Assembly (NCBI RefSeq): GCF_964355755.1
Contig: NC_092678.1
Location: 7,456,422 to 7,520,421, forward strand
Direction: 5' to 3'
Source: Antedon mediterranea
Lineage: Eukaryota; Animalia; Echinodermata
Length of the DNA stretch: 64,000 nt
The notes beneath the pieces are model-generated. The model worked only from the letters and a program-made list of their open reading frames with translations. It ran no database searches and had not been told where the DNA came from. The translations under genes were made by a program, and so were the position numbers. Positions 31,544 through 62,640 of the stretch are shown piece after piece. Position 1 is the stretch's first letter; every line of letters begins with the position of its first letter.

Positions 31544-31639
31544 CTGAAAAAATATAAATAATCCCAAAAAATCCATATCAAATTACTATGTTTATTATGA
31601 TCGCGTATAATTCCATGGAGCATGGATATGACACATGGG

Positions 31640-31997
31640 CAAACCAAAAAAAAAAACCTGTGCAGACCTCCGCCAAATCACGTATTATTTTTTTCATAAA
31701 TTACTTCCTATGATAGTCCTAGTCATGATAGAACCAATAATAAGCCATTTGGAGGAGGTTTGCGCAGGTTTTTTTTTTGGTTTGCACGATTTAAACTGTA
31801 TCTGACATTTTACCCAAAAAATGATGTTTTTCGTCCCCAAAAAAAACCAACTTACATCAATTTCATAATTTTTTTTTCATAAATTACTTGCTATGATAGT
31901 CCTAGTCATGATAGAACCAATAATAAGCCATTTAAAGGAGGTTTGCGCATGGTTTTTTTTTGGTTGGCGCTTGGTTTGCGCAGTTTAGCAATACCCC
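31640..31997. mobile_element. Diverged relative of the foldback family in CELSR intron 1
   Basis: Ends in gtttagcaataccc, shares aaaaaatgatgtttt and ggaggtttgcg motifs, and has its own internally duplicated module (cataaattactt...gatagtcctagtcatgatagaacc x2). Confidence 0.7.
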
Positions 31998-32267
31998 ATT
32001 TTAGTCATCTGACAACATTTTTTACTACACTGTTGATTATGCATAGCTTTTTAAAATGCCTCTCAATTTACAAAATTTGTGTACAAATTTTATTGTATTA
32101 AATTTGAACTATCCTCCCACTGATAAGAAAGTGCTTATTTTTAACAAGTTTGTGTAACACAAATAAAATCCCAAAACTTATGAAACATAGGGGAAACTAT
32201 AGATCGATAATTATGGGAATGTATGATCAAAAGAAATTTTTTGTCTGCACCTGGCCTTTAAACTTAC

Positions 32268-35166: not shown

Positions 35167-37402
35167 TTTGTCTACTGAGTACAAACAAACCCTACCGCCT
35201 GAGCATTCGCCCATAAAGCAAGCGATGCTTAAATTCAACAAGTACGTTCTCCGTAATAACTTCTATGACTTAAAATAACGAATCATCTTTACGTTCCTGT
35301 ATCCATCTTTAAAAAAGACAATAATAATCCATTGGAATTTAAAATACAAGTAGTCACTCAACGTAATTCCAGTAAATCCACAGCGTTCGGGTAGAATCTA
35401 CCTGTAGTACTACCAGCAACCGCTCGCTTCTTTCACTGTTTACCCAAGCGCATACTTACAATTCACACGATGCCCAGTTTAAAACAAGTTATTAAAGAGG
35501 GCGCTAGATAACTTTCACAGTCAATATTTGCCTTACTGCTACTGTGCTAAAAATATAAAATTAGAAATACTCCAAGCAAATAAACAAATAAATATTTAAA
35601 ATATAATAATTTCAATAACAATAACAAATAAAGAAAAAAATCTCAGAAGTTAAATTTATAAAAATGTAAATGTTCGTGTCTAATCGCCTGTCTAGGTTTT
35701 TCCTTATATTTGCCGTTTTCTGTGCTTTTTTATTGTTGAATCTTTTTATGTATGCCTGCCTTGATATTTACTACGCGCAATAAAATAGCGCTTAGTAAAA
35801 GAAAGAAAACAAACTAGAACATGCACCCTATGTATGATCTTTAAAACACATTGGGAAAAGCTTGTACTTTTATAAATTAAATATAGGCATATTATATTAT
35901 TTCTACAAATGTTCTTGCCAGAATTCCAAATCGATGTAGGCCTACTCGAAGTGAAAGTAAGAGGAAATTTGTCGTCTCTTTTCCTAAAAGTTTTATCTAC
36001 AGAGCACTAACCTATCCGAATACAGCATGCTTCCCTCCAAACTGAGGAACGCGGTGTCAATAAATAATGTTAAGTCTTCTCTGAAAAGTAGGCCTACACG
36101 TCCCTATAATAACCGTCGTGTTTTCGTAAAGTCCCTAATATAAATTCTTTGACTCCGCCTAAATCCGAGCACCGTCCCTTTAACTGTTAGCATTATTTGT
36201 CATTTTATAAGTGAAATAATTGTTGTTGTCTCTTTTTCTACGAAATGGATTAAAAAACTGCAAAATGACCTATTTCAGGACTGATTTTATTAAGCTTTAT
36301 TTTTAATGTTTTTGAGGGACACAATGCATCTTTCGTTTATTGAATTGACAACAAAAAGACAAGAGAGAAATCAGCGTCTAATTTATATTTATTTATAACT
36401 ATTATATACACATTTGTTTTATTGTAATACATTATACAGGTTGTTATTCTTCAGGTTCGATGGATAAGTATATTTGAAACGTTGCATTTTAATTTACATT
36501 GATGGGGTGCACACTTCTACATTCGTATACTTGTTTTCCAGTAGACATTGTAATAAATATCGCCCTCTATCAATTATATTAGGCCCAAATTCTGTTGCCG
36601 CGCCGCGTGTGTAGGCAGTTATATTCCAGAGGAGAAAAGCATTAGTAAACTGTATTACGGGGAAGCTTATACTTACTACGGCTGGGCATTTGGAAACTCG
36701 GATCGGCCATACGCAACTCCCAAAGCACGTCTGGGAGAAGAGACTATGAGATGTATGCATACTTTAGTGGTCCTTAGGGAGTAACGCCTCTGCTGCAGAC
36801 TTTAGTGTGGGTCACATGTCCTTAAGGAGTAGGCCTAACGTGTAACCCCGAAATATGTACAGTACTATAGTTTAGTATACGTTTATAAACGGGTTGTTGA
36901 TATTTATAACGATATTACCAGTATTATTACCAACTTAAATTTCTATATAGAGGGCTACGGCAAAGTTCCAAGAGCGCACTTGTTTCTTAGGCACCGATAC
37001 AAATATTTTATTTATCCATGGTCAACGAATTTAGAAGTAAAACATATTTTAGTTATTCTTATCATGAATTATCGTCTGTGGTTTCCCATTACAATTCTAG
37101 TAGGTGTTATGCACAATGAACATTAGAGCGTGTCGTAAGCACATATTATCCATGCTCAGGCTCTACTTTAGATCTAAGTCTAAATTTGTAATGAATTAAA
37201 AGACTTTACAGGGTTCCGTGTACAACCACTCATGTAGATCGGACTTCTAACCAGTGGTCAAAAAAGCCTTTAAAAAGCTGGATGTCCCTTCACTATTATT
37301 TAAATTAAAACAAAACTGTATGCTGTTCAGATCCCATAGATCTAGCATAGTTTCAATATCATGTCTTTTCTCACAGAAAGGCCTAAGTAATTAAAACGAG
37401 CC

Positions 37403-38220
37403 TCATATGTCTCCAATGATTTCCTGTGGTGGTAAGAAAGCTGGCACTCCACACTCTCTATCTTCTGCTGCCTTTAGCTGCTGTGTCCAATATCTCAGTC
37501 TCATTGAGGCAACACGTCTCTCCATTTGGCGAACTCTTAACTCCGTCTCTTGTGTTTCTAATTTTGTCTTCAAAATCGTCGTTGTCAGTTGTCTTTGCTC
37601 CTCATTATAATTGTTACAGGGGCATTTGGTGTTATCATCAATATCGTCTGGTGGAGATGACGTGACTGTAGGCCTACTTGTAGGCCTATAGACCGGCACA
37701 GTGGTTTTTTTAAAGAATTCCGCGGTAGAGATTTGGAAAGTTGTATTTATTGACCATTGGTAAGATTCCGGAGTCGTCTGTGAATCTAATTCTGGAACTG
37801 CAGTAGTTGAACCGGTGCTATTTGCATAATGTAATCTTAAAGGTGAAACTAATGATGTGACGTCAGTCGTTGATGGGACGTCGGCTGTTGGTGTGACGCC
37901 AGGTGTTGGTGTGACGCCGGGTGTTGGTGTGACGCCGGGTGTTAGTGTGACGCCGGGTGTTTGTGTGACGCCAGGTGTTGGTGCGACGCCAAGTGTTAGT
38001 GTGACGCCAAGTGTTGATGTGACGCCAGTTGTTGGCGTGACGCCAGGTGTTGGTGTGTCGCCAGGTGTTGGTGTGACGTCAGGCGTTGGTGTGACGTCAA
38101 CCGTTGGCGTGATGTCATCACGAATTTGATCATTAAGCGGTATTGATGCGTCTATAGTGTAGGATAAAGTAGTCTGTGAAGTTTTATTTTGTAAAGATTC
38201 TGGTGAAAATGTAATCGGTT
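37403..38220 (-). CDS. Secreted CELSR-derived cadherin-repeat protein, terminal exon 3 (Thr/Pro-rich mucin-like stalk, CPC, predicted coiled coil, stop)
   Basis: Acceptor ttttgttttgcag|AACCG at 38221/38220 keeps the frame (E-PITFSPES), and the stop TGA ends at 37403. Exon sum 2080+507+818 = 3405 nt = 1134 aa plus stop. There is no hydrophobic TM stretch. A candidate AATAAA on the minus strand lies at 37007-37012. Confidence 0.8.
37852..38115. repeat. Coding 18-bp minisatellite (about 14 units) encoding the TPGVTP hexapeptide
   Basis: GGTGTGACGCCAGGTGTT-like units are repeated in tandem and translate on the minus strand as (VTPTPG)n. Confidence 0.95.
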
Positions 38221-38457
38221 CTGCAAAACAAAAATTCAACAGTGTTAATGAAATAAACTCTATCATTAAGTGCCAATTTCATACCTCGTTTAAAATGTTG
38301 ATGTGTAATATATTGGCAGTTCTCTCGAAAGAGAGGAACGCACACAGTGTACTCTTAAAATGTACTGACTATAAAATGTTTGAAAAGTAATTTTTATTAA
38401 AGAATCTTCTTAAATTGTATTGTGTAAAAAAAAAAAACGTCAACATTCATGAATTAC

Positions 38458-38964
38458 CTGATGTCCTATTTCTTATGACTCGAATCACAAGTGGTTCTTG
38501 AATTGTGTATTGCCCGCATGTCGCAACAATCTCTAGTCTGTCATAAACATTCTTGTTTCGCTGTGCCAAATTTCGTTTTGTCACCAAAACACCCGATGTT
38601 GTACCAATATTGAAGAACTTTGAGTCTTGTTTACTCAAACGAAATCGCACAGGCGTACTTATCTCATCATCCGGATCGGAAAGTTCTACCTTTCCGATGT
38701 AAGTTCCACTTCTACTGTTTTCATGTACCTCATACTCTGTCGGTGACACTATGCGCGGAGGGTTATCATCAACGTCTGTAACTTTGATATGGATAGGTGT
38801 GGAAGTCTGATGGGTTCCGTCTGATGCTGTGGCCAAAAGGTTGAATTCTGGTGTGAGTTCTCTATCAAGGCTGTAGTTTTCTCTGGTTTTAACTTCACCC
38901 GTTTTAGCATCGATAACAAAGTAAATGCTATACGTGTTTTCTTGTAAACTATAAGTTATGCCGG
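38458..38964 (-). CDS. Secreted CELSR-derived cadherin-repeat protein, exon 2 (rest of EC7, EC8)
   Basis: Acceptor ttcttttttcag|CCGGC gives A-GITYSLQENTYSIYFVIDAKTGEVKTRENYSLDRELTPEFNLLATASDG...DVDDNPP.... Donor TCA G|gtaatt at 38458/38457. 507 nt, phase 1-1. Confidence 0.9.
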
Positions 38965-39395
38965 CTGAAAAAAGAAGAAAATCTTGGTTATTTCTATCTA
39001 TTCATCGCTTTACTAATAGTTTTCAATTACGCCGCTTGCCATCATTCCAACCTAAACTCATCATCACATTCTCAGCACCACGACATCGTCATTACTAGGC
39101 CATATTACTATCCCATTGTGAAATTGAGTTCTGCCGAAAATCACAAGTAGCAAGATTTTACTAATTTGCTAATATCTTTATTGGAAAAAAACAATACGCA
39201 TAGTAGGCCTAAGTACAAATGTTGACATGGTCGATTCTCTATAGTGCCGTTTATACTTTCATTGATCCGAGTAGGTTGGAAGATTACGTCATACACATAG
39301 GAATTATTTCAATGTTAAATTAAGCTAAAATTTGGTAAAATATGTGGCGCAACTTCAACCACACTTCACACAATTTGAATAAAGACCGTATTTAC

Positions 39396-41475
39396 CAGAA
39401 GTATGGTTATCTTTGTCGTTGGCTTCCACTTTTATAACATAGACTGAGTTGTTGTTATTTTCCTGTACCACTCCAAAATACGGTAAGTTCAAAAACTGGG
39501 GTCGGTTATCATTCATATCAACCACTAAAATATTTACTGTCGTCCAGCTTTGTCTAGGTGGTTCACCCCCGTCTGTAGCAGTTATATTGAAAGCATGGCG
39601 GTCAATTATTTCACGATCTAACTCCGCAGCCGTAAAAATTTCTCCCGATGATTGATCAATGGTAAAATACGGATTGAATTTCATTGAGTATGTTACGTAA
39701 CCGTTTACGCCCGCGTCATTATCGGTAGCTCGTACCTGCAAAACGCGTTTGCCAACAGATTGATTTTCATACAAAAACGCATTATAAATCCAATTTTCAA
39801 AAAGAGGTGTGTTTCTGTTTATAATTTCAATAGTAATGTTACAAATAGACTCATGCACAGAGTCAGATGCCGACAATGTTATATCATACCTGCGAAGTTC
39901 AATTTGCTTAGAAACTAGAACTGAAACTCCATTTTCATTTGTAGATATCTTAAACACATTCCCCTTATTACCAAACTTAATTCGATACGAAATATCGCCG
40001 ACAGAGTCGACATCAGAAATTATCAGACGAGTGACCTCAGTTCCCAGAGTAGTGTCATGCAATTGTATTTTGTCTTGACAATTTTCAATCACAGGTTGAT
40101 TGTCATTGACATCTTTTATCAAGATACGCATGCGAACAATATACGGTGACTCACATTCCACCTGGATTTTAAAAACATAAAAATTAATAGTCTCTCTATC
40201 TAAACCAGATGTTGTAAACACTGATCCAGTCTTTTCATCTATTCGAAAAGGCAAGTCTTCACTAGAGTTCAACATATTATAACTTGAAACTTCCGCGTTA
40301 TAATCAAATTTGTGGATTTGGGAATTAGTGGGTGTGTCCTCTGGTATTGATAAATTAAACGAACTTTTGTATCTCTGAATGAAAGGTTTGTCCACATTAA
40401 CAGTTACTGACGTATCCTTCACGCGTAAAGCAAAACCAACATGTTGCGCGCGCACCAGCAGACGATAACTCATAAGATCATTTTCTAAATTATTTGTTAA
40501 ATATAATTCTCCACTAGATTGATTGATTTTAAAATAAATACTTCCATTAATGATATTATACGAGATGTTGGCTTTTTGATCAGACGGTTGCCACGACGTT
40601 GCCTTAACTTCTCCAATTTTCGAATCTTTTGTTGTGTTTTCAGAGATTGTCATTGTATAATTCACCGACAAAAACTTTGGTCTGACGTCATACACTGATA
40701 TCTTAACTTTGGTCCTAGACGTCTTTGGCGGGTTACCACCATCACTCCCTTCAATGATTAAAGTATAATCACCAATTCTATCAACACCAAATATCTTTTT
40801 GTTCGCGATTTCCCCGTTTCTTTTGCACCTGAATATCTTGTTCCTATGCAGTGGATTTAAGAGTCTGTACGTAACCTGCCCGTTTTCATCGTTGTCTTTA
40901 TCGGTTGCTTTGACGGTCAAAATCGTTGTTCCTTTACTAACTTCAAACGCAACCGAAGCTCTATATCGCAACTGCTCAAACACTGGTGTGTAAAAGTTTC
41001 CTACCGTTAAGACGTCAATAGTCAGAACTGCAAGCGCCATTGGCGATGTTAATGAATTGACGGCTGTAGCAGTAACTATGAATACATGCGTCTTTAAAAC
41101 ATCAACCCCTGGCTTACTAACCCGTATGACTCCAGTATTTGGTTCAACATAAAAATAATCTTTACTTAAGCCATTGTCTGTTCTAAGTTGATATGCTATT
41201 CCAGTATAATCACGAGACGGATCGTCCTCAACTACAGTTATTCTCCCGATTGTGTAACCTGGTTCAGCACTTGCTGGAATTGTAAAATTAAACCGATCAG
41301 AAGTAAAACGGATTTTGTAAATGTCATTACCAAAATCTTCTGAGCCGCTGCCGTCTGGGTCGAAATCCGTCAGCGTTCGATGTTCAGAGGTTTGACTGAA
41401 ATCAGGCGGTGAATAGCCATATGTAAACGGACAAAGATAACTAATCATAAAAACTAATACAAAGGTAAAATCCAT
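39396..41475 (-). CDS. Secreted CELSR-derived cadherin-repeat protein, exon 1 (signal peptide, EC1-EC6, start of EC7)
   Basis: ORF 39355..41544 opens on GTG. The ATG at 41475 has a strong context (gacacaATGG) and is followed by the hydrophobic signal peptide MDFTFVLVFMISYLCPFTYG. Cadherin repeats are collinear with the neighbouring CELSR exon 1. Donor TCT G|gtaaat at 39396/39395 (phase 1). Confidence 0.9.
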
Positions 41476-42639
41476 TGTGTCTTTGTAAACTCTACAACCA
41501 GATACACATGGTAGGCCTGTCAGCCTTGGCTCTTCTGAGCTCACTCGGGCCAGTTATCGTGGGGAATCAAATATTACAATGAGCATAGTTCACAATGACG
41601 GTTTAGATAGTCCTCTCCGGAAAAAAGCGCGCCATCTATTAACTTATTGGTCGATTATGATCGATCACTGCCGGCCTATTTCATAGAATCATGAGTCTAA
41701 AGTCGCAAAAATATTATACATGATGTTTGCATAAGAGTGTAAATCATTACAAAATAGAGCACAAGTCCACGGTGATGTGTCTATCTGTAGACCTAATTAT
41801 GTTTATGTTCCACACAAGTTGTATATAATTCAGCCAGTAAATGTGACGTGGATATAGGCCCCAACAAATATTGTGTAAAGTTCGGGTTACAAAGTTTATT
41901 TTATAAGCAGACGATCAGAAAATTCCCAGGCCCTACAGGAACCCATCGATTGATCTTTATTGTTTCCACCTGTGGTACTAGTAAATGTAGGGGCAACACG
42001 TTCCTTAGCTTCACTTGCTATTTTAGGCCAATAATAAACTTAAACGCTACCCAACGGAACAGTGAGTAATCGGTATCGGGTCGCAGTTCATATTTCCACA
42101 AATAGCAAGTATACGGTACATTTTAAAAATGTGATAACGAAAGGGACAATGCGTGAAAATTTCTAAAAATCTAAAAAAAAGTTCAACGTCACAATTAACA
42201 ATGCCATATACATGGCTGCAGTCGCGTGCTCAAATTTGAGTTAGTGTTTACCGACCAACCGACCGACCAACATAGTAAGCTGAGTATTGTAAATAGACAG
42301 CACACTGTAGATTGGTTTCGAACGCGCACAGTATTAGGCCTATTCATCGATATAATAAAAGATTTGAATAGAAGAAAACAACAAACAGCACATGTTACGA
42401 ATCAACCTGTCGAGTTGCACAAAAACCTCAACATGTTGTCACAAAAAGCTGACCGTTGATTAGTAGGCCTACTATCTTTAAAAGAGTTGAATAGATGAAA
42501 GTAACAAACGGCACGTATGATATACAAATTAACCAATCAAAGGTGGGAGAATAATCGTTGAATGAGGTGAACTTGGTGGAACATACTAAAATTACTCTCA
42601 ACGTCTTTCAAAAGATTGTGTGTTCCGTAATTAGTTGCG

Positions 42640-43860
42640 GAAAATTATTGAGTTTTAAACTTCATTAGAAATACGATGCGATACGACAAGAAAACCTATG
42701 GGGTAATAAGGAAATTGTTTGTAAAAACACTACTTTGTTTTATAAAACGTGGTGTAATGTAGGTTTCAATCAGATCAATGATTTAGTAAGAATCAATAGA
42801 CTAATGAACCCACATGAAATTTTATCAAAATTAAATGTCAAAAGAAACTGGCTTAGTGAATATGCTACACTTATGCAAGCTATTCCTAAAGGTTGGCTGG
42901 ATTTAATAAAAAATTATAATGGAGATAGTGTTAAATTAAATTCAGATGATTATAAAATAAATAAGATATTTCAGATGAAAACAAAACAGATATATTAAAG
43001 TTTTATAGAAGGTATGTTTGTTGCTCCTATTACTATGGGAAAAGAAATTGATATTGAAATTACAAACTGGTTTGATATTTGGTCAAGAAAAGTAAAAAAT
43101 GAGAAAAACAAAAAATATGCACAACTTAATTACAAATTGCTTCTTAGAATTTTACCAACAAATTTACAATTATATAAATGGATTTTAAGAACACAAAAAA
43201 ATGTGAGTTATGTGATGTAACTGAGGATGAAAAGCACATGTTTTTCAAATGTAAAAGCAATGTCTTATTATGGAAAAAAATCAATGAAATATTTAAAAAG
43301 TTAGATAATAGTAACTGTTCTTTTGAAGAACTTGTTTTTGGGTCTGAATGCAACATAAAAAATAAGTTATACTCAATTGCTCTATATTCTATATATAAAA
43401 TAAAAATATTGTCAGAATTAAATAAGTCAGTCTGTAAAAACTCATGGATAATGTTTAAAAATATACTTACACAAGAGTATACCATGAATGTATTTTATTA
43501 ATTTTTTATTTTGAAGGTTACTGTAAATAAAGTAATTTGTACAAAAATGTAAATAGTGCAAATAAAACAGAAAAAAGAGAAAAAAAGAGAAAAACAATAA
43601 AAAGAAGAGTAAAAAAAAAAGAGCATGGCAAATTCTATACTCTACAAGCAACTGGTTATTGAGTTGCTTTTGATTTTCCATATTTATTGATATTGTTTTC
43701 AGTTTATATGTAATGTAAATGTATAAATGATATCTTGCAGAGTTTTTTTAAGATGTAAGGGGAAACTTTATGTCTATGAATGAAAATAGTACATATTTAA
43801 AAAGATAATATACAAACATAATACAATTGTTTATTTATGTTTTGAAATGAAATAAAGGTG
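42640..43860 (+). mobile_element. 5'-truncated, frameshifted L1/Tx1-clade LINE (ORF2 C-terminus with CCHC zinc finger, plus 3' UTR)
   Basis: Consecutive fragments LWGNKEI...LFYKTWCNVGFNQINDL...LMQAIPKGW, then W..IW...QLNYKLLLRILPTN..LYKW, then KCELCDVTEDEKHMFFKC....LW. These are typical of the post-RT region of L1/Tx1 ORF2. Confidence 0.85.
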
Positions 43861-49279: not shown

Positions 49280-49426
49280 CTAATCGCCAAGCCATTTGGT
49301 GATACTTGTTGGTCCGAGTTCTCTCCATTCCTCTTTGCTAATGCTCATGGTATCAAACACGGACAGTGGTGCTAAAATGGTAGCACCATTGTATGCTGCA
49401 TGATATCGCTCTTGCGCTGCATGGAC
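49280..49426 (-). CDS. Actin-like domain terminal exon I with stop codon
   Basis: catgcaccag|GTC...TAG, 147 nt: VHAAQERYHAAYNGATILAPLSVFDTMSISKEEWRELGPTSITKWLGD* (actin [42 protein letters not shown]). Confidence 0.92.
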   Translation of the reverse strand, partial: VHAAQERYHAAYNGATILAPLSVFDTMSISKEEWRELGPTSITKWLGD

Positions 49427-51524
49427 CTGGTGCATGGAAAGTTAAAGAAACAAAAAGAACAATTAACAATAATTAGTAATGAAACAACAAATGAATGTGT
49501 CCTAATTAAATTTGATGTGATACAAACAAAATCAAAGTGTAAATTTAAACGTGCAGCTTGGTCTTTTGGAAAGTTAGACAATACAAATTAGTAATGCAAC
49601 TACAATGAACGTGATTTCAATTTAACACAAGACCATAAAAAGTACAGTAATTAAAAAAAAAACAACTTAGCAGTTAAGTGCATGATGTGAAGTTAATTAT
49701 AAACAAATAATTAATTAATAATTTCTATTTAAAAAGAAATACTACTGAATATATAGAAATTAAAAGTATAAAGTTGATTAAAATTATGAAACATTGATAC
49801 AAATAATGTAATGTAAAGTTTAAAAAATAAATTAACAACAATATTTTATGGTTAATGATTAGTTATCTTTACACTATCTCCTCTTATTATGTTATATGAA
49901 TGTTATAATTAGGTTATATGCATGATAATGCATCTTGATTCTCTCAGGATCTTTATTTTAATCTTGAAATTAAAACATTGATGAGTACGAAAATGTGATC
50001 TTAGAATTAATTTTTGTTGGTAGAGTTAAAATTAATGTTTGTTGGTATAGTTATTATTGCAAGTGAGAAAAGCAATTAAGTGCAGTCACAAGCCACATAA
50101 GTCAGTGCCAACACCCTTCTAAATCTAATTTTTAAAAACCCACCACGCCCACCTTTCTAAATCAATATAGACTAAAAAAAAACCGTCCTCAATTTGCCCA
50201 ATGGAAAGATGTCAAAATGTTATTACTAGGCTGGTGCTAGTCATCTCGTACCCTTGGCAGCTTGTACCCAACTTACATTACAAATACCAAAATACTAGGT
50301 ATGTTTGTTAGGCATGCTACATTACTATGTTATTGCTTATAGCCTATGGAAACTACAAAGAAAAAATCACCATGGGAAAGATAGCATGACCAAGATCGAG
50401 GTCACTCAGATGAATAAACTGGGTTTTGATTTTCCAAACTAGATCCGTATGTATGAATCTGGAACAGCGATCATTATTTAAGATTGCTTCCTGGGTTTAA
50501 TATAATTGTCTTTCCCCAAAACTAGGTCATGGCCATCACAGATTATTAAATATCCCAACTTATTTCAATAAAGAACTAAATCCATTAGGATGCGTAGAAG
50601 AGTTTACTAAAAGGTTAATTTACTAGGAAATCCATTGTAAAATATTTAATAACTGTCTTGTTTTAGATGCTGATTGTTTTGTGTTATTATTACAACCATA
50701 GAGATAACATCATAAACTAGAGGGAAAACTAGGTAGATATGGCCAACAAAATTTATCAAATGCATTGTATTTAATTTCCACAATTTAGAAATGTGAGAGG
50801 GCCTTGATTCCCTGTGTAAGGTACTTTAAAAAAAAAAACAATTTTTTTGGTAAATCACATCAGATAAGTACTCTATTTTTGTCGTTTCATTCCATTTTTT
50901 AACAGAGTATTTTTTACATAATTTTTGTTTCTTTTTTTTTTGTTTTTAGAAGATTTACAAGATGATTTGCTATTTATAAATAATAATATTTCATGAGGAA
51001 CAAAATTAAAAACATATTTGTATCAATAGAATGCAGTTTTAATAACCCTATTTCAATAATGAGAATGGTAAAAATCTTAGGTTTTGCCTGATATGAGGTT
51101 CATTTCAAACCGTCAGATAGAGCATAGGTTTTATAGTTTAATATATCTTTCTATGGGCGGCAAATGGTGTATGGAAATTTCTTACATATACAGTATTGTC
51201 ACAATCGCAACAACCAATTTACAACATGAGGTAAAATTGAGTACAAAAGTGTTCTCATTAAATCCCAGTTTTTGTATGCTACAATATCAAGAAATGATCT
51301 TTCCAAACCTACTGAGCTTAATTATGCCACAGTGAAAGTGATTTCAGTACAATAAATATAGTTATTTCAGTAGAATAATGTTTACACGACCTTTTATGTA
51401 TGATGTTTGCATGCAACTCTTCCCCACCCCCATCCCCCTATTACAAACTCTAATCAATAAGTTTACTGATAGTAGAAATCAAAATAAATTGGATGGTTAC
51501 TTTTAAAACATGTTATTTATTTAC

Positions 51525-51624
51525 CTTTATTGTTGCAGACTTGGGAAAAATCTTAACTAGTTCTCCCTTGAGGCGTCCTGCCAGGCCTGGTAATTTGGTG
51601 CTTCCTCCGCTTAAATAGATGCTT
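51525..51624 (-). CDS. Actin-like domain exon H (adenosine-binding motif)
   Basis: tctcaacag|A...AAG|gtaaat, 100 nt: R-SIYLSGGSTKLPGLAGRLKGELVKIFPKSATIK (actin [20 protein letters not shown]...IK). Confidence 0.92.
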
Positions 51625-51791
51625 CTGTTGAGACGAAAGTAATATGCTTGTTAGTGAAAGGCAAAACTGTGGGAAAAGTGGGTACAAATCAGCAATGAAA
51701 CTTAAGTTAAGTATTAGGAAAATCTGGAATTTAGATTAATAAAAAAAGTAGTGTAGTGTAATAAAAAAAATTGATTCATTGTAATGCAATA

Positions 51792-51792
<1 letters not shown>

Positions 51793-51832
<40 letters not shown>
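51793..51832. repeat. (CA)n microsatellite
   Basis: About 20 CA units. Confidence 0.95.
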
Positions 51833-51835
<3 letters not shown>

Positions 51836-52054
51836 CATGGTTTATGGTTCATATTATATATAAAACCAAATTTGCCAAAATAAATATTTTGTTTGAAAAA
51901 AAAACATAAATCCTTCTTTTTAGAAAAAATTTTTTTGCCAAAAACTTTACAATCCCTCTTTCAAATAAATATCAAATCATACTTCAGCTCAATCTTGCCT
52001 CTTAAAAGAGGCCTCTGTTCTTCGTGTATGGCAGGAAAAGCTGTCATTGAATCT

Positions 52055-53270
52055 ATTAACCTACACACATTTTCACTAACAAAATAACCATAACCAATTC
52101 CACTAATCTAATCCACTAACTAAACTACCGTAACTAATTCCACTAACTACATATTATGTTTACATTAACTAAACTACAGTTAACTAATTCCACTAACTAC
52201 ACATTATGTTTTCTGTTATCCAAAAACTACAGTAACTACTTCCACTAACCTATACACACGTTTGCACTACCAAAGAATAACAAATTCCACTAACCTATTA
52301 TGTTCACACTAACCAAGCTACAATAACTAATTTCACTAACCTGTGTTTAGACTAACCAAATTAAAAACTAATTCACTAACCTATTATGTTCACACTAACC
52401 AAGCTACAATAACTAATTTAACTAACCTATATAAGTGTTTAGACTAACCAAATTACAAACTAATTTAACTAACGTATTATGTTCACACTAACCAAACTAC
52501 AATAACTAATTTAACTAACCTACACATGTGTTTAGACAAACCAAATTACAAACTAATTTGACTAACCTACATATGTTTACACTAAGAATACTACCACAAA
52601 TTCCACTAACCTATTATGTTTACACTAACCAAACTACAATAACTAATTTAACTAACCTACACATGTGTTTAGACTAACCAAATTACAAACTAATTTCACT
52701 AACGTATTATGTTCACACTAACCAAGCTACAATAACTAATTTAACTAACCTACACATGTGTTTAGACTAACCAAATTACAAACTAATTTTACTAACGTAT
52801 TATGTTCACACTAACCAAGCTACAATAACTAATTTAACTAACCTACACATGTGTTTAGACTAACCAAATTACAAACTAATTTCACTAACGTATTATGTTC
52901 ACATTAACCAAGCTACAATAACTAATTTAACTAACATATACATGTGTTTAGACTAACCAAATTACAAACTAATTTTACTAACGTATTATGTTCACACTAA
53001 CCAAGCTACAATAACTAATTTAACTAACCTACACATGTGTTTAGACTAACCAAATTACAAACTAATTTTACTAACCTATTATGTTCACACTAACCAAACT
53101 ACAATAACTAATTTAAACTAACCTACACATGTGTTTAGACGAACCAAATTACAAACTAATTTGACTAACCTACATATGTTTACACTAAGAATACTACCAC
53201 AAATTCCACTAACCTATTATGTTTACACTAACCAAACTACCATAACCAATTCCACTAACCTACACATATG
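52055..53270. repeat. Minisatellite of 46-47-bp subunits forming a 93-bp higher-order repeat, abutting exon G
   Basis: For example, tattatgttcacactaacc recurs at 52705 and 52798. Units contain actaacctacacat, the reverse complement of the exon G donor junction. Confidence 0.92.
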
Positions 53271-53406
53271 TTTTCTGTTATCCATTCCACAGGCTTTGAT
53301 TGATTTAGCCACCAGTAAGTGAAGACCAGGATGATCCTTCCCCCAAAGCTCAGGGTGGAATAACCCTTCAGTACTCCGGAATCTACCATTGTCAACTCGT
53401 ACATGT
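53260..53406 (-). CDS. Actin-like domain exon G
   Basis: atttacag|A...AG|gttagt, 147 nt: G-HVRVDNGRFRSTEGLFHPELWGKDHPGLHLLVAKSIKACGMDNRKHMC (actin [21 protein letters not shown]...GIHE...SIMKCDVDIRK). Confidence 0.9.
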
Positions 53407-53954
53407 CTGTAAATATCAAAAAAGTTAAATAAAATAAAACCTAACTTTTTGGCAGAAGCATAATAAAAAATTGAGATTTTCAATATATGTCTTTAATTGA
53501 AGTAACAAGATCAAAGTGACTATTTACTGGATTTTAATATATAAACTAAATACAATTCATAATTGTTTAATAAATTGTATAAATGAAAAAAAAAATGAAA
53601 CAAATTTCACATCCAGGATTTGAATTCTTTTATGATGATGATCTTTAATGTTAGCTATTTTGTGATGTATTGAAATGAGAATAATAGTTCAGTCGTTTTT
53701 CACACATCTCAAAACACTTGACACCCACAATCATAACATTTCAATAGAAAATTCCTTTGAATGCAAAATTTGTTTTTAAATAAATAAAAATAGCAGCAGC
53801 TATGCAGCTCCAAAATGTGATAAAAAAGGGAATTTAATGGTACTGTACAATTTTATTTGGCCTAATCATAAAGCTCTGTATAACTCTCAAACTTGATGTG
53901 AAAAAAATGGACACGATGATGTCATATTTCAGCACATCGTTTTATAAAAAAGTT

Positions 53955-54570
53955 AGGTCCCCGATCTCATGTTGGTCAATCTCAGCTAAACGACGTTGGT
54001 ATGTTAAAAGTCCAAGACTGTGTCGAATTTCTTAGAGTCTGTCATGTTTTTAAAATATATAATCATTGTTGTCCACCTTATTTATGCATTCGTTTTATTA
54101 AAATTTCAGACAGTCATAATTACAATACTAGGGGATGCAATTTTAATTTTAGAATCCCAACTATCAAGCCAATGGCACATGTGACCTTTTTTTACAATGC
54201 TATTAAAAAATGGAATAATTTACCAATTAACATTAAGGAATCACAAACTGTTTTTTGTTTTAAAAGTAAAGTTAAAAAGTATCTACAGGGACGTTCACTA
54301 GCTCTAGAAACTATTTAATAAGCGCTTCTTCTTTTTTCGATTGTCCTCTTTGCTGTTTTTTGTAATTTTTATTTGTTGCATTGTTTGTCTTTTTTGCTGT
54401 TCTTTCAAAGGACCTCATTGGAAACAAGTCCGTAGAGGACTTTTATGAGTTATCCTTGGCATCCTTGTTTTATTTTGGTATTTTTATATTTGCCAATTTT
54501 AATTGTATGTCTGTGATATTTTATGTACTGATGCCGAAATAAATCAAATCAAATCAAATCAAATCAAAAT
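53955..54570 (+). mobile_element. 5'-truncated CR1/L2-group LINE (ORF2 C-terminus, 3' UTR, (AAATC)n tail)
   Basis: FKIYNHCCPPYL...HNYNTR...TFFYNAIKKWNNLPINIKESQTVFCFKSKVKKYL is the hallmark end of L2/Crack/Daphne ORF2. The UTR has a stem ggacctcat...atgagttatcc, then AATAAA followed by AAATC repeats. Antisense within an intron of the actin-like gene. Confidence 0.88.
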
Positions 54571-56207
54571 CACACTTTTTTTTAGGAAACTAGTTTGATT
54601 GTGTAGACAAAACATTAGAATGGTTCTTGAAATGGAAATGCATGTCATAAATAGAAATAATTTAAAAGGTAGCTGTTTTAGCTGGTTTATAATTCTATGA
54701 TGATGACAATGCATTCATTATGTTGAAAGTGAAATCTTAATACAAACACGATCACTTCCTGTGAGCCTTGTGGTGGAGTAAAGCCAAACTGATCCACTGG
54801 GACCAATGGATGAGAGGTGTGCCAACATCTAATAACTGTCCATTTAGGGGTATGATCTAACTCACTCAAAGGTGCTTTGCAAAAGTCGATCATGTCATCT
54901 GACATTTTCGCATACACTCATAGCTCTGATCATTTAAATGCTTAATAATCAAGGACTGCTTCACTAAGCCTGGCAACAGTACATTATATACACAACTGAC
55001 TTAAGTTGCTTAGAGAATACTAACAATCTGCATTGAGTTCACTCTATCAATCAAAGTTCTGATTTTTACATGCATTAAACTTAGTTAAGTTACTCATGTA
55101 TAAAATGCGCCAATATTTTAGGACTGCATAATGTAGAATTAAAATCAGGACCTCCCTGAAAGCCTGTTACAATCTGTTTTCCTTTAACTTTTAAAAAAGC
55201 CACAGCTGACGTGATCTCCTCAGCCAAGTAACCAGTCACCGATGGATTTCATAAGAACTAAGCTATTCATAATTGCATTTAAAATAGTTTATCTTCTGAA
55301 GTAGTACAATGAGATGCTTTTACTTTTAAAATCATTCCATACAGAGCTTTGTTTTCCTTGCCATTTGAATGGTTGATTATACGTATCATATGCTGACCAT
55401 TTGGATTTGTTTCAACATTTTGATAATTTTGTCCAATGACTGCTACAAGTTTAAAAACTAATATGTAGTGTGTACTGTTACGGTTATACTCCCGTCGGAA
55501 TTCCTAGTCATATATTTTGTTAATGAGACCACACAGTCTGCTTTCCATACATGAAAAAGATTTTTTAGAATATTTGAACGACATACTGGTCCATAGACCA
55601 TTCCATTTTTCAATAAATCAAACTATTCTATCCATTCAATCTAAGCATTTATCATTTGTATAACATTAAGCTATACTCTATTGACCTTACCCTGGCATAA
55701 GTAGAATCCAGGACTGCTTGTTCAGTTGACTATGATTTGTCAGGCCTAGCCTGTTAACTTTAATCTCAACATTCCCAGGCACATGAATGAAATATTCCAT
55801 ACATACTTTTTTTTCCATTCTTATGATACAAGTTAACCTAATGTCATTGGTTTTAGCCTTTAAATGTGATGAACGTTTAACCTCCTCTGGTAAAACATTG
55901 GCGGAGCACAATTGAGACAGAGCCAATTTTAACTTCGAACATGTTACAAAATATCTGCATATTACAGCTGTATAACAGTTCGAGTCCACATAATCTTACC
56001 AACAATAAACTCCACATAGACATATATTAAGTATAAACCAGTTTGGCATTGTAAATTTATCCAAAGTTGTCTCTGTACTGTGTCACTAAATAACTGTACT
56101 ATAACTGTATGCATAAATAGATTAGCAAGCCAGACACTACTAAATACAGTATACTGTACGAAATACAATTTAGTATAGGCCTAAATTTTGTTGACATTTT
56201 CACTTAC

Positions 56208-56320
56208 CCAAACCCATCAGGTACATGATAACGATCCAAGTCCACCAGGGTACTGCATAACTCTGTGTCTACACTGCAAAATTGTAGTTCTGCCTGGTAA
56301 TTTTGTGCAACAAAACATGC
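56208..56320 (-). CDS. Actin-like domain exon F
   Basis: tttttag|GCA...GG|gtaagt, 113 nt: ACFVAQNYQAELQFCSVDTELCSTLVDLDRYHVPDGF (actin LCYVALDFEQEM...YELPDG). Confidence 0.9.
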
Positions 56321-56551
56321 CTAAAAATAAACAGAAAATTGTTAATATCATTTTCAAACACACATAAAAACATATAGATTTTATATAATGGAGGAGGATC
56401 ATCATTCTGCGGAGGAGGATCATCATTCAGTTGATAAGAACCCTCATTGTGTTCATGAAATGATGATCATCATTCTCTTGATGATTGACATTCAGTTGAT
56501 GATGATAGGATCTATTGTTAGTTTGGCTAAGTTACTATGCAATACTCGTAC

Positions 56552-56600
56552 CTTTTCTTTGATAAACCTGCTTATGTATGATTCTACATCAGAGAAATAT
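56552..56600 (-). CDS. Actin-like domain exon E
   Basis: cttttcag|A...AAG|gtacga, 49 nt: R-YFSDVESYISRFIKEK (actin FTTTAEREIVRDIKEK). Confidence 0.88.
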
Positions 56601-56897
56601 CTGAAAAGATAAGCAAATAAGATAAAAAGATTTAAAATATATAATTTTATAGTAAACATTAGACTTTTGTTATAAAAGACATAAACAAATCTAGAATTAT
56701 GTATCGACATCTTGAACATTTGTACATAGCAAAGGTTGACATCCTAATGGCAAGATGAGGGCAGCAAAGCATTTGAAAAAGTGCAAGTTGGCAGAGAAAG
56801 GTCAAAACTCATGCCTTCTCAGTATGCACCACTTCACTCTTGCTGTTATATTCTGATGATATAAATCTCAATGTACACTATAGCAGAGCCTACTCAC

Positions 56898-57033
56898 CTG
56901 TGACCCTGTTCTGTTAATAGTCTGGTAAGGTGCTCCGTAATCTGCCGTCCCCCAAATGGTAGCCTACTAACACCTCCTTCAACTATGTATCCATCCACTA
57001 TTGGCACAATATCAATTCTTTCACCTACATTTA
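56898..57033 (-). CDS. Actin-like domain exon D (phosphate-2 region)
   Basis: tttgttatag|TA...AG|gtgagt, 136 nt: VNVGERIDIVPIVDGYIVEGGVSRLPFGGRQITEHLTRLLTEQGH (actin DSGDGVTHTVPIYEGY...[22 protein letters not shown]). Confidence 0.92.
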
Positions 57034-57371
57034 CTATAACAAAAAAAAAGTCTTTAAAAAGTAATTCATACAGTTTGTACATGATTTATATTGAAGCTCT
57101 AAGTCATTTGGGATTCTACAACCTGCAAGATCTTAGAGCTTTTGGCCATATTTCCAGACTGCAAGAAAGATGAATTTTGGACATTACACAAATCTTTTCT
57201 GTTTGTCCCAAGAAATTAAATTATACAAAAGCAACAAAAAAGGACATACAGTATTATAGCACTCTGTCCTATTGTGTTATAATGAAATTATTATTATACA
57301 CTACTGGTGTCATGAACTTGTTGTCAATGCTGTTTTTTCTCATCCCTCAATGCATAGCCTAGAAATCTTAC

Positions 57372-57480
57372 CAACAACACCAGACGTTGCTTTGTAAGAG
57401 TATAGCGCCATCAATGCTTGTTCTTGAATGAAACATCCTTCCACGTGGAATCTTTCAAATAAAAGCTCTGCAAGTTTTTC
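57372..57480 (-). CDS. Actin-like domain exon C
   Basis: ttttacag|GAA...G|gtaaga, 109 nt: EKLAELLFERFHVEGCFIQEQALMALYSYKATSGVV (actin EKMTQIMFETFN...IQAVLSLYASGRTTGIV). Confidence 0.92.
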
Positions 57481-58109
57481 CTGTAAAATATAAATACAAA
57501 GACATATTTTGCAGTGGGGTTTCTAAATTTCATGAAAAACTACTCTTTTGTAGGGTTTGATTTACTGTAAACATCAACATTGTGTGTCAACATTTCTAAA
57601 ATTGTGATCATCAAAAGACAGAATTGTATTGAACATAAACTTGTTTTCTAAAGAGAGGTACTATTTTTTTAAACTTTATTTTATTCGGAATTATATTTTT
57701 TCAGGGTCTCTGGGTTTAACCAGTGAGTGATCACAGCCGCCAGCCACTGATCACATTATTGGCCTATCAGATATGCCAGTTGAAGTCACACGTCCCCTAC
57801 TCATTCATGCACAACTACGCCCATGTTCATCATATCACCTTTCTTCTTACACAATCTTTGTATGTAAAAATTGTATACATTTATTAATAGAACAATATCA
57901 TAAAAAATGTACTATAATTTAATTCAGATTGATGTGGTTTAGATACTAAATAGCATAATTGAACAGATGTAAGTGTAACAATACAGTGGCCATTTTAAGG
58001 AGTCCGCTGTCATGTTGGTATCCCTTTTCTTGCTCCTAGTTCACTCTTTACTTAATTATTTACACTCTTTGGTATTTCTATATTTTTTATTAATTGGTAG
58101 TTCACTCAC

Positions 58110-58232
58110 CAGAGTCTTTTTACCAAAGTTGAATGGCGTGATGAGAAGCGTCGTAAAAGCAATCGGATCAACTTTTAATTCTGTGTACACATAATTTAAT
58201 AAACCTTCAACGACATCTAAATTTAGTGTAAA
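58110..58232 (-). CDS. Actin-like domain exon B
   Basis: ttttacag|TTT...CTG|gtgagt, 123 nt: FTLNLDVVEGLLNYVYTELKVDPIAFTTLLITPFNFGKKTL (actin [30 protein letters not shown]). Confidence 0.9.
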
Positions 58233-58312
58233 CTGTAAAACAAAACATTGGATTAAATAATTAAATTATTTGATTATTGAATTTCCTCAAATGTATCTAT
58301 AGTACCAGTGAG

Positions 58313-58594
58313 AAAATCTTTATTGTTAGAGAGAACATGCATCTGCTCATCATTCTGTTGATGAGGATCATCATTCTGTTGATGAAGTATCATCATTCTG
58401 TTGATGAAGTATCATCATTCTGTTAATGACAGTCATCTTTCTTTTAAATGAGGTACATCATCCTGTTGTTGATAAACATCATTTTGTTGATGAGAACGAA
58501 CCTGCATTTTGTTGATGAGGAATAATTCTGTTGTATGAGGGTCATCATTCTGTGGAAAAATCTTTATTGTTAGAGAGAACATGCATCTGCTCAT
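58313..58594. repeat. 21-bp tandem array bracketed by a 38-bp direct repeat
   Basis: catcattctgttgatga units. aaaatctttattgttagagagaacatgcatctgctcat lies at 58313-58350 and 58557-58594. Related units occur at 56388-56500. Confidence 0.85.
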
Positions 58595-59043
58595 TCAATT
58601 CTTGGGTCGGAGTAAACAACTTCAAGATTCAATTTTTTGTCACATAAAATTTAAATGTAATTTCTTTTTCAGTGGTTTCAAAATAAAATACAAATAAAAC
58701 ACACAATTGAATAAACATAAGTATGACAAATTTACATTACTGTATACTAGTAGTATACTGTAAGTATAAATGAATGTGTCATCATTTGCGGTAAAAATAT
58801 GGTATGCAAGAATCAATTTGATTGGTTTGTGATTTGACATTTTTGTTGTTTTTCTTGTACGCTATTCTGATACCTTTCACCTCCAAACTCTAAATCGGTG
58901 TGTGGTTTACACTAGCTGCTAGCATTACCTAGTGCATACCTAGGGAGAATTATACAATCTCCATTGGTCTGAACAGGCTCTTAGTTGAATAAGGGCAATA
59001 ACAATACAATGTGTCCAATAGGTTACAAATTGTGAACGCCTAC

Positions 59044-59256
59044 CTTTTCTTGTTCTAGAAGAGGTTTTAATGGATAAACCACTTTTGAACTTGCTCTGCA
59101 ATCTGGGTGGAGTGCATCAAACCCATACACTTTTCTGTCTTTATTTTTCTTGTGAGTTGCCACCACACATGGAAAGAAGAGTTGCGGGGTGGGGTTGTCA
59201 TCTGTCAGCACTCCTGCTCTTACTGCTGAACTACCAAGGTCAATAATAACAACAGG
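59044..59256 (-). CDS. Actin-like domain exon A (phosphate-1 loop)
   Basis: ttttgtatag|CCT...AAG|gtaggc, 213 nt: PVVIIDLGSSAVRAGVLTDDNPTPQLFFPCVVA...VYGFDAL...VYPLK. Aligns to actin [29 protein letters not shown]...YVGDEA...KYPIE. Confidence 0.9.
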
Positions 59257-60469
59257 CTATACAAAACAATAACACATTAGAATACTTCATCTGTAATATG
59301 CAAATAATATAAATCAGGCTGCAAACCATTGTGGACTTCAAACTGAATGACTTTCTACTAGTATTCAGAAGTCTTTTCTGAATTGTGTACAGTACTTTTA
59401 CATGAGAAACATAAAAGAATCTACAGTAAAATAGTCCCATTTTTGGCACTGCATTATTAAAAATATTATTAATGCACTGCAGCTAGAACACAAGAGGGCA
59501 GCAATATGATTTGAGCAAGAAAATCTTCCAGTTCATTGTCCAGTACAGTGACTATTTAAAGTTTATATGTATTTTTTATAATTTAAATGAACAAAATAAA
59601 AATATCGTTCATCAAAGTACTACCAATATCCATTTTAAAAACCCTTAAAAAAAGACAAAATTTGTCAAGAACACAAATTTGGCCGTATATAACCATGTGC
59701 AAAATTTGAAAGAAATCCATTTTTGTTAGTCTGCCACTATTTTTGATATTTCTTTGATTCTTACAGACAATGGCTCTTAAAGTTTATATGTAGTTTTTAA
59801 ACCAGGAAATCGCTTCATCACTTGCATAACACATTTAATCTCTACCTTATAAATAATGTTCAAAAAAAAGAGAAATATTCAAAAATAAGATTTGTGTTCT
59901 CTCATATTTCACCATAATTATGAAACCTTAGATTGAATAAACATCTGCATTCAAGCACAAGTCTCAACTACTGCTGGAACTCTTTATGTATGTACTCACA
60001 TGTTTACTGTTTCGCATTAAGGCCAATTTACAAAGAAGAGTGGTAAAGGTAGTAAAAATATAGAAACTATATGTTATTCCTTATGACCATTTACATACAA
60101 TGCAGACAGCGTTTTCCGCTTACCGTTAAGCTCGTCTGTGTAAATTGGTTGGGTATACTGTATAATATTGTTGGGGATTTCAGATTTTGTTTCTTGGCTT
60201 TCAATTTTTTTTTTCAATTTAAACAGATATGTTTTACAATACCATGGAATCTCCGTAAACAGACATCCTCAAGACTGAGTGAGAAAAGTGCACATTTACC
60301 AGAGTTTTGACAGATTGAAGACTACATGATATTTCTTTTCTCTGCATTTGAAACACAGTTGTCTAGTCATTTACATGGTAATTCAAGGTAACTTTCTTAC
60401 CTGATTCTCAGTGATGTATCTCAACATATGACAATATTCCCCCAGTAATCTCAGAAATATTTGATAATA

Positions 60470-60708
60470 AAACATCTCATTTTTATCACACTCTGTGTTT
60501 CCTGTATCATTTCCTTTGTTTGGTCACCTAGGTAGGGGTCCGGGACCGCGACAGAACGAGAACGGATGGGGACCCTCCAAAGAAATTGCATTTTATTTGT
60601 CAGGCATTTGTATGATTTGTTTTTATTTTTTTGAATGCGCCTTGAGCACTCTTGAGTGGTATGTGCGCTATAAAATCCTGTTATTATTATTATTATTATT
60701 ATTATTAT
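60470..60708 (+). mobile_element. L2-type LINE/SINE 3' end
   Basis: The terminus gcgccttgagcactcttgagtggtatgtgcgctataaaat followed by (TTA)n resembles the conserved L2 3' stem-loop and tail. Confidence 0.65.
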
Positions 60709-60901
60709 CATGGTTAGGTTATGGTCTATGATACTAGGAAATACATGTGATATTAATACCAAATATTGCAATGATAAAATCTAGATACAACACCGAGAAC
60801 CGAGTGTTTAACCATCCATTTTAAGTTCCTTTTATTTTATTGGTTTTGTAAACAAGGAAATGACCAAATTTATTTTTTACTACAACACCATATGAACCTA
60901 C

Positions 60902-61027
60902 CTTTGTGTATCTTCTTGATAAGGTTGCACCAATTCCTCCACAATCTTTAGCCTCAGCAATCAGAGCTTTCCTCCAATCTTCAAGTTCTGTTTTCGTTCC
61001 ACACCTCAAAAGCAGCACCCTACCTTT
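60902..61027 (-). CDS. PH-domain-like exon upstream of the actin-like domain
   Basis: tctctag|AAA...AAG|gtaggt, 126 nt, phase 0-0: KGRVLLLRCGTKTELEDWRKALIAEAKDCGGIGATLSRRYTK. The L-x-C-x-T-x-x-E-x-x-x-W-x-x-A-L pattern is the last strand and C-terminal helix signature of PH domains. Confidence 0.75.
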
Positions 61028-61161
61028 CTAGAGATAAATAGAATTTGTAAGATTTTGTTATTTAACTAAATTATCAGCAATTGTCAATCATCTTCTTTAA
61101 ATATGCTACTTCCGCGTACACAAGGAATTTAATGATACGTGATAGCAAACTAGCGTATTTA

Positions 61162-62079: not shown

Positions 62080-62640
62080 GGATTGAGTAATAAGCACTGA
62101 AATTGAATAAGTTCTGCAGTCAAATAAGTGAAATAGTAAAAGTAAAAAAAGCACTGTTACAGTCTAATAAGTGCTGTAATCAAATAAGTGACACAGTTAA
62201 ATAAGTGCTACGGTTAACAAAAGTGCTGCAGTCAATTATGCAACACAGTTATAAGTGCTGCAGTTGAATAAGGGCTGAAGTAAAATAAGTGCTGTAATCA
62301 ATTAAGTGACACAGTTAAATAAGTGCTACAGTTAACAAAAGTGCTGCAGTCAATTATGCAACACAGTTAAATAAGTGCTTCAGTTGAATAAGGGCTGAAG
62401 TAAAATAAGTGCTACAATCAAATAAGTGACACAGTTAAATAAGTGCTACAGTTAACAAAGGTGCTGCAGTCAATTAAGCAACACAGTTAAATAAGTGCTG
62501 CAGTTGGATAATGGCTGAAGTCAAATAATTAAGTGCTACAATCAAATAAGCACTACAGTGAAGTTCCCACGGTCAAATAAATATAGTGGAACCTTAAATT
62601 AAGTACCAGAAAACTGAATGCTATAGTCAAATAAGCACTG
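62080..62640. repeat. Minisatellite of about 20-bp units (aaataagtgctgcagtc-like) with about 120-bp higher-order period
   Basis: The blocks aataagtgctacagttaacaaaagtgctgcagtcaattatgcaacacagtt are repeated three times. Confidence 0.9.

Follow-up and report, generated by a model that had tools for sequence, protein, structure and literature searches.

The standard conserved set of actin-related proteins (Arps) comprises Arp1-11, and other Arps are regarded as lineage-restricted orphans (PMC2441452, PMC7038667). The latter include Arp53D of Drosophila and the testis Arps of mammals, which fall outside Arp1-11 and are restricted to particular lineages (PMC7038667). Arp11/ACTR10 sits at the pointed end of the actin-like filament in dynactin (PMC8047447). 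In filactin of Dictyostelium, a domain highly similar to conventional actin forms the C-terminal part of a long protein (PMC2441452). Here we analyse a 64,000-nt stretch of AT-rich animal DNA from the crinoid (feather star) Antedon mediterranea, called the window below. Its minus strand contains, at 61027-49280, a gene whose product combines a PH domain with a divergent actin domain. The protein, P0001, is listed by NCBI as a 1070-residue 'uncharacterized protein'. We class its family as an undescribed, ancient subfamily of Arps with a built-in PH domain. Members are already present in databases as uncharacterized or misnamed proteins, and a worm gene has been mentioned at the level of screens.

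The 420 residues encoded in the window are identical to P0001 651-1070, including the exact C-terminus. The first actin exon matches two proteins among 57 candidates, P0001 (100%) and P0002 of Anneissia japonica (94%). The PH domain of P0001 (PF00169) was found at 581-674 (E 1.2e-9, 39 bits against a cut-off of 25.1), and the actin domain (PF00022) at 693-1066 (E 3e-62, profile positions 5-407 of 410), as the initial annotation had proposed from the DNA alone when it described a PH-actin fusion. At E up to 1, Pfam returned only Actin, PH and PH_8 for P0001, with no filamin, F-box or ankyrin match. The ten exons have AG acceptors in all cases and GT donors at all nine internal ends. Their phases are consistent and yield 1263 nt, that is, 420 codons and a stop. 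The nine actin exons alone encode exactly 378 amino acids; the coordinates, phases and splice ends from which the same domain had been assembled earlier all hold. The exons and the intron between the two domains are as follows.

60902..61027, minus strand: PH exon of 126 nt, P0001 651-692, with the last PH strands, the C-terminal helix and the linker; spliced to 59256 in the X1 contig
59257..60901, minus strand: phase-0 GT-AG intron of 1645 nt separating the PH and actin domains; contains high-copy repeats
59044..59256, minus strand: actin-fold exon 1, P0001 693-763, with phosphate loop 1 and the shortened D-loop; Pfam Actin 6-64, E 2.6e-4
58110..58232, minus strand: actin-fold exon 2, P0001 764-804; silent in Pfam when alone
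57372..57480, minus strand: actin-fold exon 3, P0001 805-841, with the equivalents of Gln137 (Q825) and Tyr143; Pfam Actin 111-146
56898..57033, minus strand: actin-fold exon 4, P0001 841-886, with the remodelled phosphate loop 2 and its one-residue deletion; Pfam Actin 153-190
56552..56600, minus strand: actin-fold exon 5 of 49 nt, P0001 886-902, with the equivalents of Arg210 and Glu214
56208..56320, minus strand: actin-fold exon 6, P0001 903-940; silent in Pfam when alone
53260..53406, minus strand: actin-fold exon 7, P0001 940-989; Pfam Actin 271-325
51525..51624, minus strand: actin-fold exon 8, P0001 989-1022, with the adenosine motif (equivalents of G301 and G302); Pfam Actin 329-360
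49280..49426, minus strand: last coding exon, P0001 1023-1070, with the stop codon; Pfam Actin 361-407, E 3.7e-8

The nearest AATAAA downstream of the last exon is at about 49001. Single exon pieces were also scanned, namely eight pieces from actin exons and the PH exon, the 49-nt exon being too short to include. Six of the nine match Pfam Actin singly and in profile order (6-407 of 410), whereas two actin-exon pieces and the 126-nt PH exon have no match. Of the hits expected at the outset, those to Actin were thus obtained from the exons, and that to PH came from full-length P0001 and not from the 126-nt exon. Read in frame, the 100 codons upstream of 59256 lead to a stop at the acceptor; the actin part thus lacks an unspliced start, as had been claimed. 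The N-terminus had been placed past the window. Indeed, a tblastn search of the window with P0001 found no exon for residues 1-650, which puts the N-terminus beyond position 64000. A candidate exon near 61540 was rejected: it has stops in all three frames, failed the exon scan and does not match P0001.

One possibility is that the fusion is an annotation artefact or a read-through involving a PH gene and a separate actin-like gene. The junction named in the initial annotation for a check in reads was found in a contig of run X1 (2976 nt, depth 19.5), where 60902 is joined to 59256 and 1645 nt with CT..AC ends are skipped. The contig is identical to the window in the actin exon and has one difference, at the edge of the PH exon. 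It has 1666 nt preceding the PH exon and 970 nt beyond the first actin exon, and these sizes fit the long model. On the side of an artefact, this is one junction in one run, seen in a contig: the reads were compared with 59000-61080 only, and hence with one of the nine junctions, and X1 is probable RNA by a guess, no run being recorded as RNA. On the other hand, the actin exons come without a start codon. The DNA-like run X2 covers the intron evenly and lacks the 60902/59256 joint, which argues against a retrocopy.

Repeats were seen in several introns. High-copy mobile elements occupy 59560-59840, 59980-60190 and 60400-60680 of the intron between the two domains, where the DNA-like run reaches summed depths between the thousands and the tens of thousands. 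Intronic tandem arrays lie at 52114-53273 (93-bp unit, 10.7 copies, strong strand skew) and at 62158-62550 (120-bp unit, 3.2 copies, made of 17-bp subunits).

The order of elements in P0001 is a helical hairpin (30-126), an acidic disordered linker, a W-[DN]-P helix around 547, the PH domain (581-674) and the actin fold (693-1066), the folds being predicted. The AlphaFold2 model, built from an alignment of 47 rows, has a mean predicted local distance difference test score (pLDDT) of 67. It contains a confident hairpin at 30-126 and, after disorder through most of 130-536, a short helix pair at 542-556 that is also confident. Strands at 583-658 and a helix at 662-676 are modelled for the PH domain, that is, the seven strands and C-terminal helix of the fold. 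The linker (130-535) has a net charge of -48. No second actin or PH domain was found in any of the 130 family rows defined below; a check for a second actin-like domain had been called for in the initial annotation.

The N-terminal hairpin was found in 31 of the 130 rows, from Acropora to arthropods, and not in the named choanoflagellate rows. Foldseek gave no match to it at E up to 0.001, the best VIA Z score (9.3) is in the range of generic helical bundles, and the PDB profile matches are coiled coils with E of 0.002 or worse. The lead from the ESM Atlas, the Bcr-Abl oligomerisation domain, scored 0.78 and is under threshold. Pfam matches are scattered, with HR1 in one of nine members (E 0.018), and a role in GTPase binding of the HR1 type was considered and left without support. 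The hairpin could thus be assigned to no family.

The family was collected starting from P0001 575-1070. Of 7992 candidates scored against it, 47 proteins matched at E up to 1e-20. These include echinoderms, hemichordates, a brachiopod, nemerteans, molluscs, crustaceans, chelicerates, a myriapod and insects. Among 3609 shorter proteins there were 18 matches, adding snails, a thrips and three nematodes. An unfiltered search of 50% representatives, from which the best 150 matches were listed, was followed by cluster look-ups. The look-ups added Acropora, the choanoflagellates Salpingoeca urceolata and Hartaetosiga balthica, the sponge Sycon ciliatum, Hydra vulgaris and further nematodes. After removal of 66 redundant cluster members and of actin matches shorter than 330 residues, the 268 collected proteins left 176 domains. 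A family row was defined by a PH match within 80 residues upstream of the actin fold, and 130 of the 176 domains satisfy this. The three ESM Atlas clusters found at 0.91-0.95 are all Actin, two of them with PH, and their commonest taxa are nematodes and arthropods.

In the FastTree tree all 130 rows fall into a single clade of 136 rows (support 0.93), and a maximum-likelihood tree, midpoint-rooted, separates 32 family rows from 22 actins and divergent actin-like domains at 100/100. In both trees the outside rows are actins and divergent actin-like domains, with no Arp1-11. The spacing from PH to actin is 18-49 residues in the 130 rows across phyla, and in 120 rows no more than 15 residues follow the actin fold. 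P0001 shares 41-43% identity with the two named choanoflagellate members. Fourteen nematode rows, long-branched, lie inside the clade. As far as sequences go, the PH-before-actin design runs from choanoflagellates to most invertebrate groups. The conserved unnamed family at which the initial annotation had guessed is therefore real and, with 130 rows in one clade reaching choanoflagellates and a sponge, older than was supposed. The same domain order and spacing across phyla also speak against an artefact. In its favour could be cited the six further rows of the clade, which have no PH match at threshold. However, three of these have at most 44 residues ahead of the actin domain, a weak PH match is present in another, and one keeps the upstream W-[DN]-P; all six share the loop-2 signature described below. 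An artefact is thus largely refuted and extremely improbable.

No chordate appears among the named family matches, although no dedicated genome search for vertebrate loss was made. For D. melanogaster, Arp1-6, 8, 10 and Arp53D are the only Arps reported (PMC7038667), which fits a loss of the family in flies. Two Logan proteins, P0204 and P0227, are placed level with or below the choanoflagellate rows in the tree and have both the PH domain and the loop-2 deletion; their sources would date the family. Some database names are misleading: P0182 of Hydra is a 'POTE ankyrin domain family member', P0078 of Acropora an 'actin-like protein 7A' and P0007 of Holothuria an 'actin'. Such names help to explain why the family was passed over. 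By title or the start of the abstract, no paper describing it was found, within a coverage that leaves out most subscription journals and older Arp surveys. In PMC12050087 the term 'PH domain' does not occur.

As modelled, the actin domain of P0001 has the full four-subdomain fold of the actin superfamily, with the phosphate-1, phosphate-2 and adenosine motifs. In structure comparison the AlphaFold2 model aligns with actin over 343 residues (Z 43.5, 1.6 A, 33% identity in the structure-based alignment), and Foldseek gives a template modelling (TM) score of 0.93 to the target; an actin fold is predicted together with a PH fold. The identity of P0001 to actin row P0244 is 33% and the family range is 23-35%, versus 83-98% for the conventional actin rows of the set. 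Judged by this low identity and by the absence of a full DNase-I-binding loop (D-loop), His73, Gly158 and His161, P0001 is not a conventional actin.

The Arps are more distant. All Arp rows are below actin, with Z of 26-39 and 18-24% identity: Arp2/3-complex chain A (Z 38.6, 24%), Arp4 (35.8, 22%), Arp7/9 (34.1, 22%), dynactin chain J, 5adx_J (32.2, 22%), and Arp8 (31.1, 20%), with remodeller chains at 18-24%. Chain labels that go beyond the entry titles, such as 5adx_J as Arp11, are assumed. The best 60 of the 164 PDB sequence matches to the actin fold are all named actins; structures of Arp1 and Arp2 were presumably present in the bank searched. These comparisons of sequence and of the predicted structure support a fold nearer to conventional actin than to Arp3-Arp11 or, among the best 60 of 164 PDB matches, to Arp1 or Arp2. 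They also support the placement outside the classical Arp classes suggested in the initial annotation.

In the nucleotide pocket (actin numbering throughout; 13 other divergent actin-like domains served as controls) most positions are kept. The counts among the 130 rows are 128 for D/E11, 128 for K/R18, 127 for Q137, 127 for D/N154, 119 for D/E157, 124 for R210, 123 for E214 and 121 for G302. Actin residues that are scarce are G15 (3 rows), H73 (11) and K336 (none). The pocket is the most conserved of the site sets, with 74% top-residue agreement. Phosphate loop 2 is rebuilt. The stretch between G156 and P164 has six residues in all 130 rows and seven in actin and in 13 of 13 controls. In the strand register G158 is deleted, V159 is replaced by a basic residue and H161 by an acid. 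MAFFT sets the gap at 161, and with either placement Gly158 and His161 are gone; His is found at the 161 register in two rows of 130. In 123 of 130 rows, from choanoflagellates to nematodes, R, H or K follows G156-[DE].

These features could suit a membrane-bound nucleotide switch, in which the rebuilt loop 2 would give the protein its own ATP/ADP cycle, triggered by binding of a partner or lipid and not by polymerisation. The basic and acidic residues in place of Val159 and His161, the conservation of the pocket, Q137 and the residue after G156-[DE] all point in this direction. However, the pocket is also kept in the 13 controls (60% identity to actin), so a nucleotide may be held merely for stability, and P0001 itself has Asn at 154. 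We give such a switch a small chance.

The D-loop is shortened. Between actin positions 36 and 55 there are 9-11 residues in 117 of 130 rows versus 18 in actin, that is, the loop is 7-9 residues short. In actin, a flip of His161 is the trigger of hydrolysis upon polymerisation (PMC10062479). The short D-loop, the loop-2 deletion and the loss of His161 together make self-polymerisation of PH-actin proteins unlikely. A related possibility is that they form short membrane-bound oligomers or filaments of their own, with a geometry unlike F-actin. The completeness of the modelled fold would allow this. However, the family itself conserves its pointed-face sites poorly (top-residue agreement of 20% and 42% versus 51% overall), and in a homopolymer both faces should be retained. 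We consider such oligomers very unlikely, slightly more so than the switch.

The PH domain of P0001 carries the K-Xn-(K/R)-X-R motif in its beta1-beta2 loop (K589, K604, R606). The motif is complete in 80 of the 115 family rows that have all three columns. Phosphoinositide binding by this domain is likely, and from it we infer the 'membrane-targetable' nature ascribed to the protein in the initial annotation. In PDB the PH-containing fragment P0093 has no match at E up to 0.01, and a close PH domain of solved structure is therefore not known.

Against an overall identity to actin of 28%, the nucleotide site reaches 52%, the hydrophobic cleft 46% and the barbed face 40%. The subdomain-4 pointed face stands at 28%, the lateral contacts at 19% and the subdomain-2 pointed face at 10%. 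The value for the nucleotide site was reached by one of 5000 random site sets. Relative to the family background the barbed face stands at 1.46x and the cleft at 1.66x, versus 0.96x and 1.18x in the controls.

We tentatively propose, at somewhat less than an even chance, that the PH-actin protein is a membrane-recruited, non-polymerising actin-related scaffold, which would anchor filaments by their pointed ends, or hold actin regulators, at the cell cortex. The basic PH loop would bind phosphoinositides and bring the protein to the plasma membrane. The actin fold would hold Mg-nucleotide, but with 7-9 residues missing from the D-loop and no His161 trigger it would be unable to lengthen a normal filament. 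The better kept barbed face and hydrophobic cleft might then serve as a dock for cleft-binding regulators or for a conventional actin filament at its pointed end. A seat at the pointed end would be taken in the manner of Arp11 in dynactin (PMC8047447).

Another explanation is that the actin fold is a structural platform off actin filaments, like the nuclear Arps, binding family-specific partners or its own W-[DN]-P helix, with the PH domain placing it at membranes. Many residues unlike those of actin are strongly conserved in the family, among them P743 (95%), Y833 (95%), G954 (97%), W961 (94%), H1024 (93%) and H1031 (89%), and the lateral filament contacts are far from actin. Of the 130 rows, 118 have both W547 and P549, and the predicted W-[DN]-P helix, with pLDDT of 85-91 amid disorder, suggests docking on a folded domain. 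On the other hand, the barbed-face and cleft sites are nearer to actin than are the background and the controls. We regard a platform of this kind as somewhat unlikely.

The C. elegans gene F42C5.9 (WBGene00018349) is a possible family member. It is named 'Actin-like PH domain', and in a sensitised background its RNA interference (RNAi) had a weak modifying effect on the migration of neuroblasts (PMC3651406). Its annotated domains are actin and pleckstrin-like (PMC3651406, Table 7; PMC2694363, supplement 6). Since the annotation matches and nematode rows sit in the clade, F42C5.9 is, by annotation, the likely worm member; no protein named as from C. elegans was among the returns of the family search. 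A fusion to green fluorescent protein (GFP) was seen at the muscle cell membrane and on filament-like and dense-body-like structures (PMC3096668). This localisation would speak against a platform off filaments and would suit both the proposed scaffold and oligomers of the protein's own. RNAi of the gene led to myofilament disorganisation, and supplement 6 lists no human orthologue (PMC2694363). F42C5.9 rises after exposure to a pore-forming protein, among actin-related proteins (PMC9704757), and it is found in a table of antifungal RNAi (PMC4850687).

Several observations weigh against the membrane scaffold. The PH motif is missing from 35 of the 115 rows, including both named choanoflagellate rows, and the nematode rows align poorly at the PH loop (two of 14 covered, none with the motif). 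In a survey of 67 human PH domains, the motif fails to separate lipid binders from non-binders (PMC8282632). The motif alone does not predict binding, and lipid binding is therefore no more than likely. Short D-loops also occur in four of 13 controls (12-13 residues, 5-6 short), so this loss is not specific to the family. The surface sites were taken from assumed lists, seven sets in all, and tested after the fact with P uncorrected: the barbed-face and cleft excess in identity to actin is modest (random-set P 0.035 and 0.033), and conservation of these sites within the family is not significant (P 0.18 and 0.09). As to the worm gene, its orthology is putative, the GFP tag was C-terminal and the protein overexpressed, as flagged by the authors (PMC3096668), and its RNAi class is the mildest and commonest, with 82 genes (PMC2694363).

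With a single architecture and a single pocket signature shared from choanoflagellates to echinoderms, the family would extend the list of Arp1-11 by an ancient subfamily that brings its own membrane-targeting domain, a candidate link between cortical actin and membranes at the origin of animals. A broader proposal, which we hold to be unlikely, is that it is an overlooked pre-animal Arp subfamily, single-copy-like and lipid-targeted, which arose before the split of choanoflagellates and animals, was kept in most invertebrates, disappeared from vertebrates and Drosophila, and needs neither Arp2/3 nor formins to cap or seed actin filaments directly on the membrane. The family is directly testable in C. 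elegans, given a likely member with published membrane and dense-body-like localisation.

Other features were noted in the window and in the searches. The 5' part of a Celsr/Flamingo-like cadherin gene lies at 15450-35262, minus strand, with a frame of 1011 codons and six cadherin matches, followed by CELSR2-like ninth cadherin and EGF exons. Just upstream of it, at 37403-41553 on the minus strand, a second cadherin-repeat gene has three open frames, of which the last contains an 18-bp Thr/Pro/Gly/Val repeat in 13 copies (37856-38096) and a coiled-coil-like end with no evident transmembrane segment. The product is possibly short, secreted and cadherin-like. At 17626-17953, 24554-24924 and 25519-25889 a 175-bp dimer with a 9-bp array after it is found in near-identical form. 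Short open frames on the plus strand at 42669-43501 and 53920-54318 resemble remnants of tails of retrotransposons of the long interspersed nuclear element (LINE) type. Outside the family, P0218 (from Anaeramoeba flamelloides), P0221 and P0231 have two divergent actin folds in tandem, and P0265, a 362-residue actin-like protein 45% identical to actin, is recorded from an 89.8-kb contig of the bacterium Streptomyces vinaceus.

Conventional actin (PF00022; PDB 4pl7_A, 8ccn_A) is the closest solved relative of P0001 by both sequence and structure, and shares with it the whole-domain fold and most nucleotide-site residues. P0001 differs in the short D-loop, the loss of His73, Gly15, His161 and Lys336, the one-residue deletion in loop 2 and about 690 additional N-terminal residues. 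With Arp11/ACTR10 of dynactin we propose a likeness of role and not membership; that protein is a stand-alone subunit with no PH domain (22% identity, Z 32.2). Filactin shares the C-terminal placement of actin with P0001, but its actin domain is near-conventional and its N-terminal part, which we take to be filamin-type, is not PH. Plant ARP8 (F-box and actin) also has an N-terminal addition, as do the F-box-actin rows P0061-P0065, whereas P0001 has no F-box match. POTE-actin fusions presumably have an ankyrin part before actin, and P0001 has no ankyrin match. Arp53D and the testis Arps are lineage-restricted, in contrast to a PH-actin family that extends from choanoflagellates to most invertebrate phyla. 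C. elegans F42C5.9 is like the family in its domain annotation, and is known from screens only (localisation, RNAi and proteomics lists).

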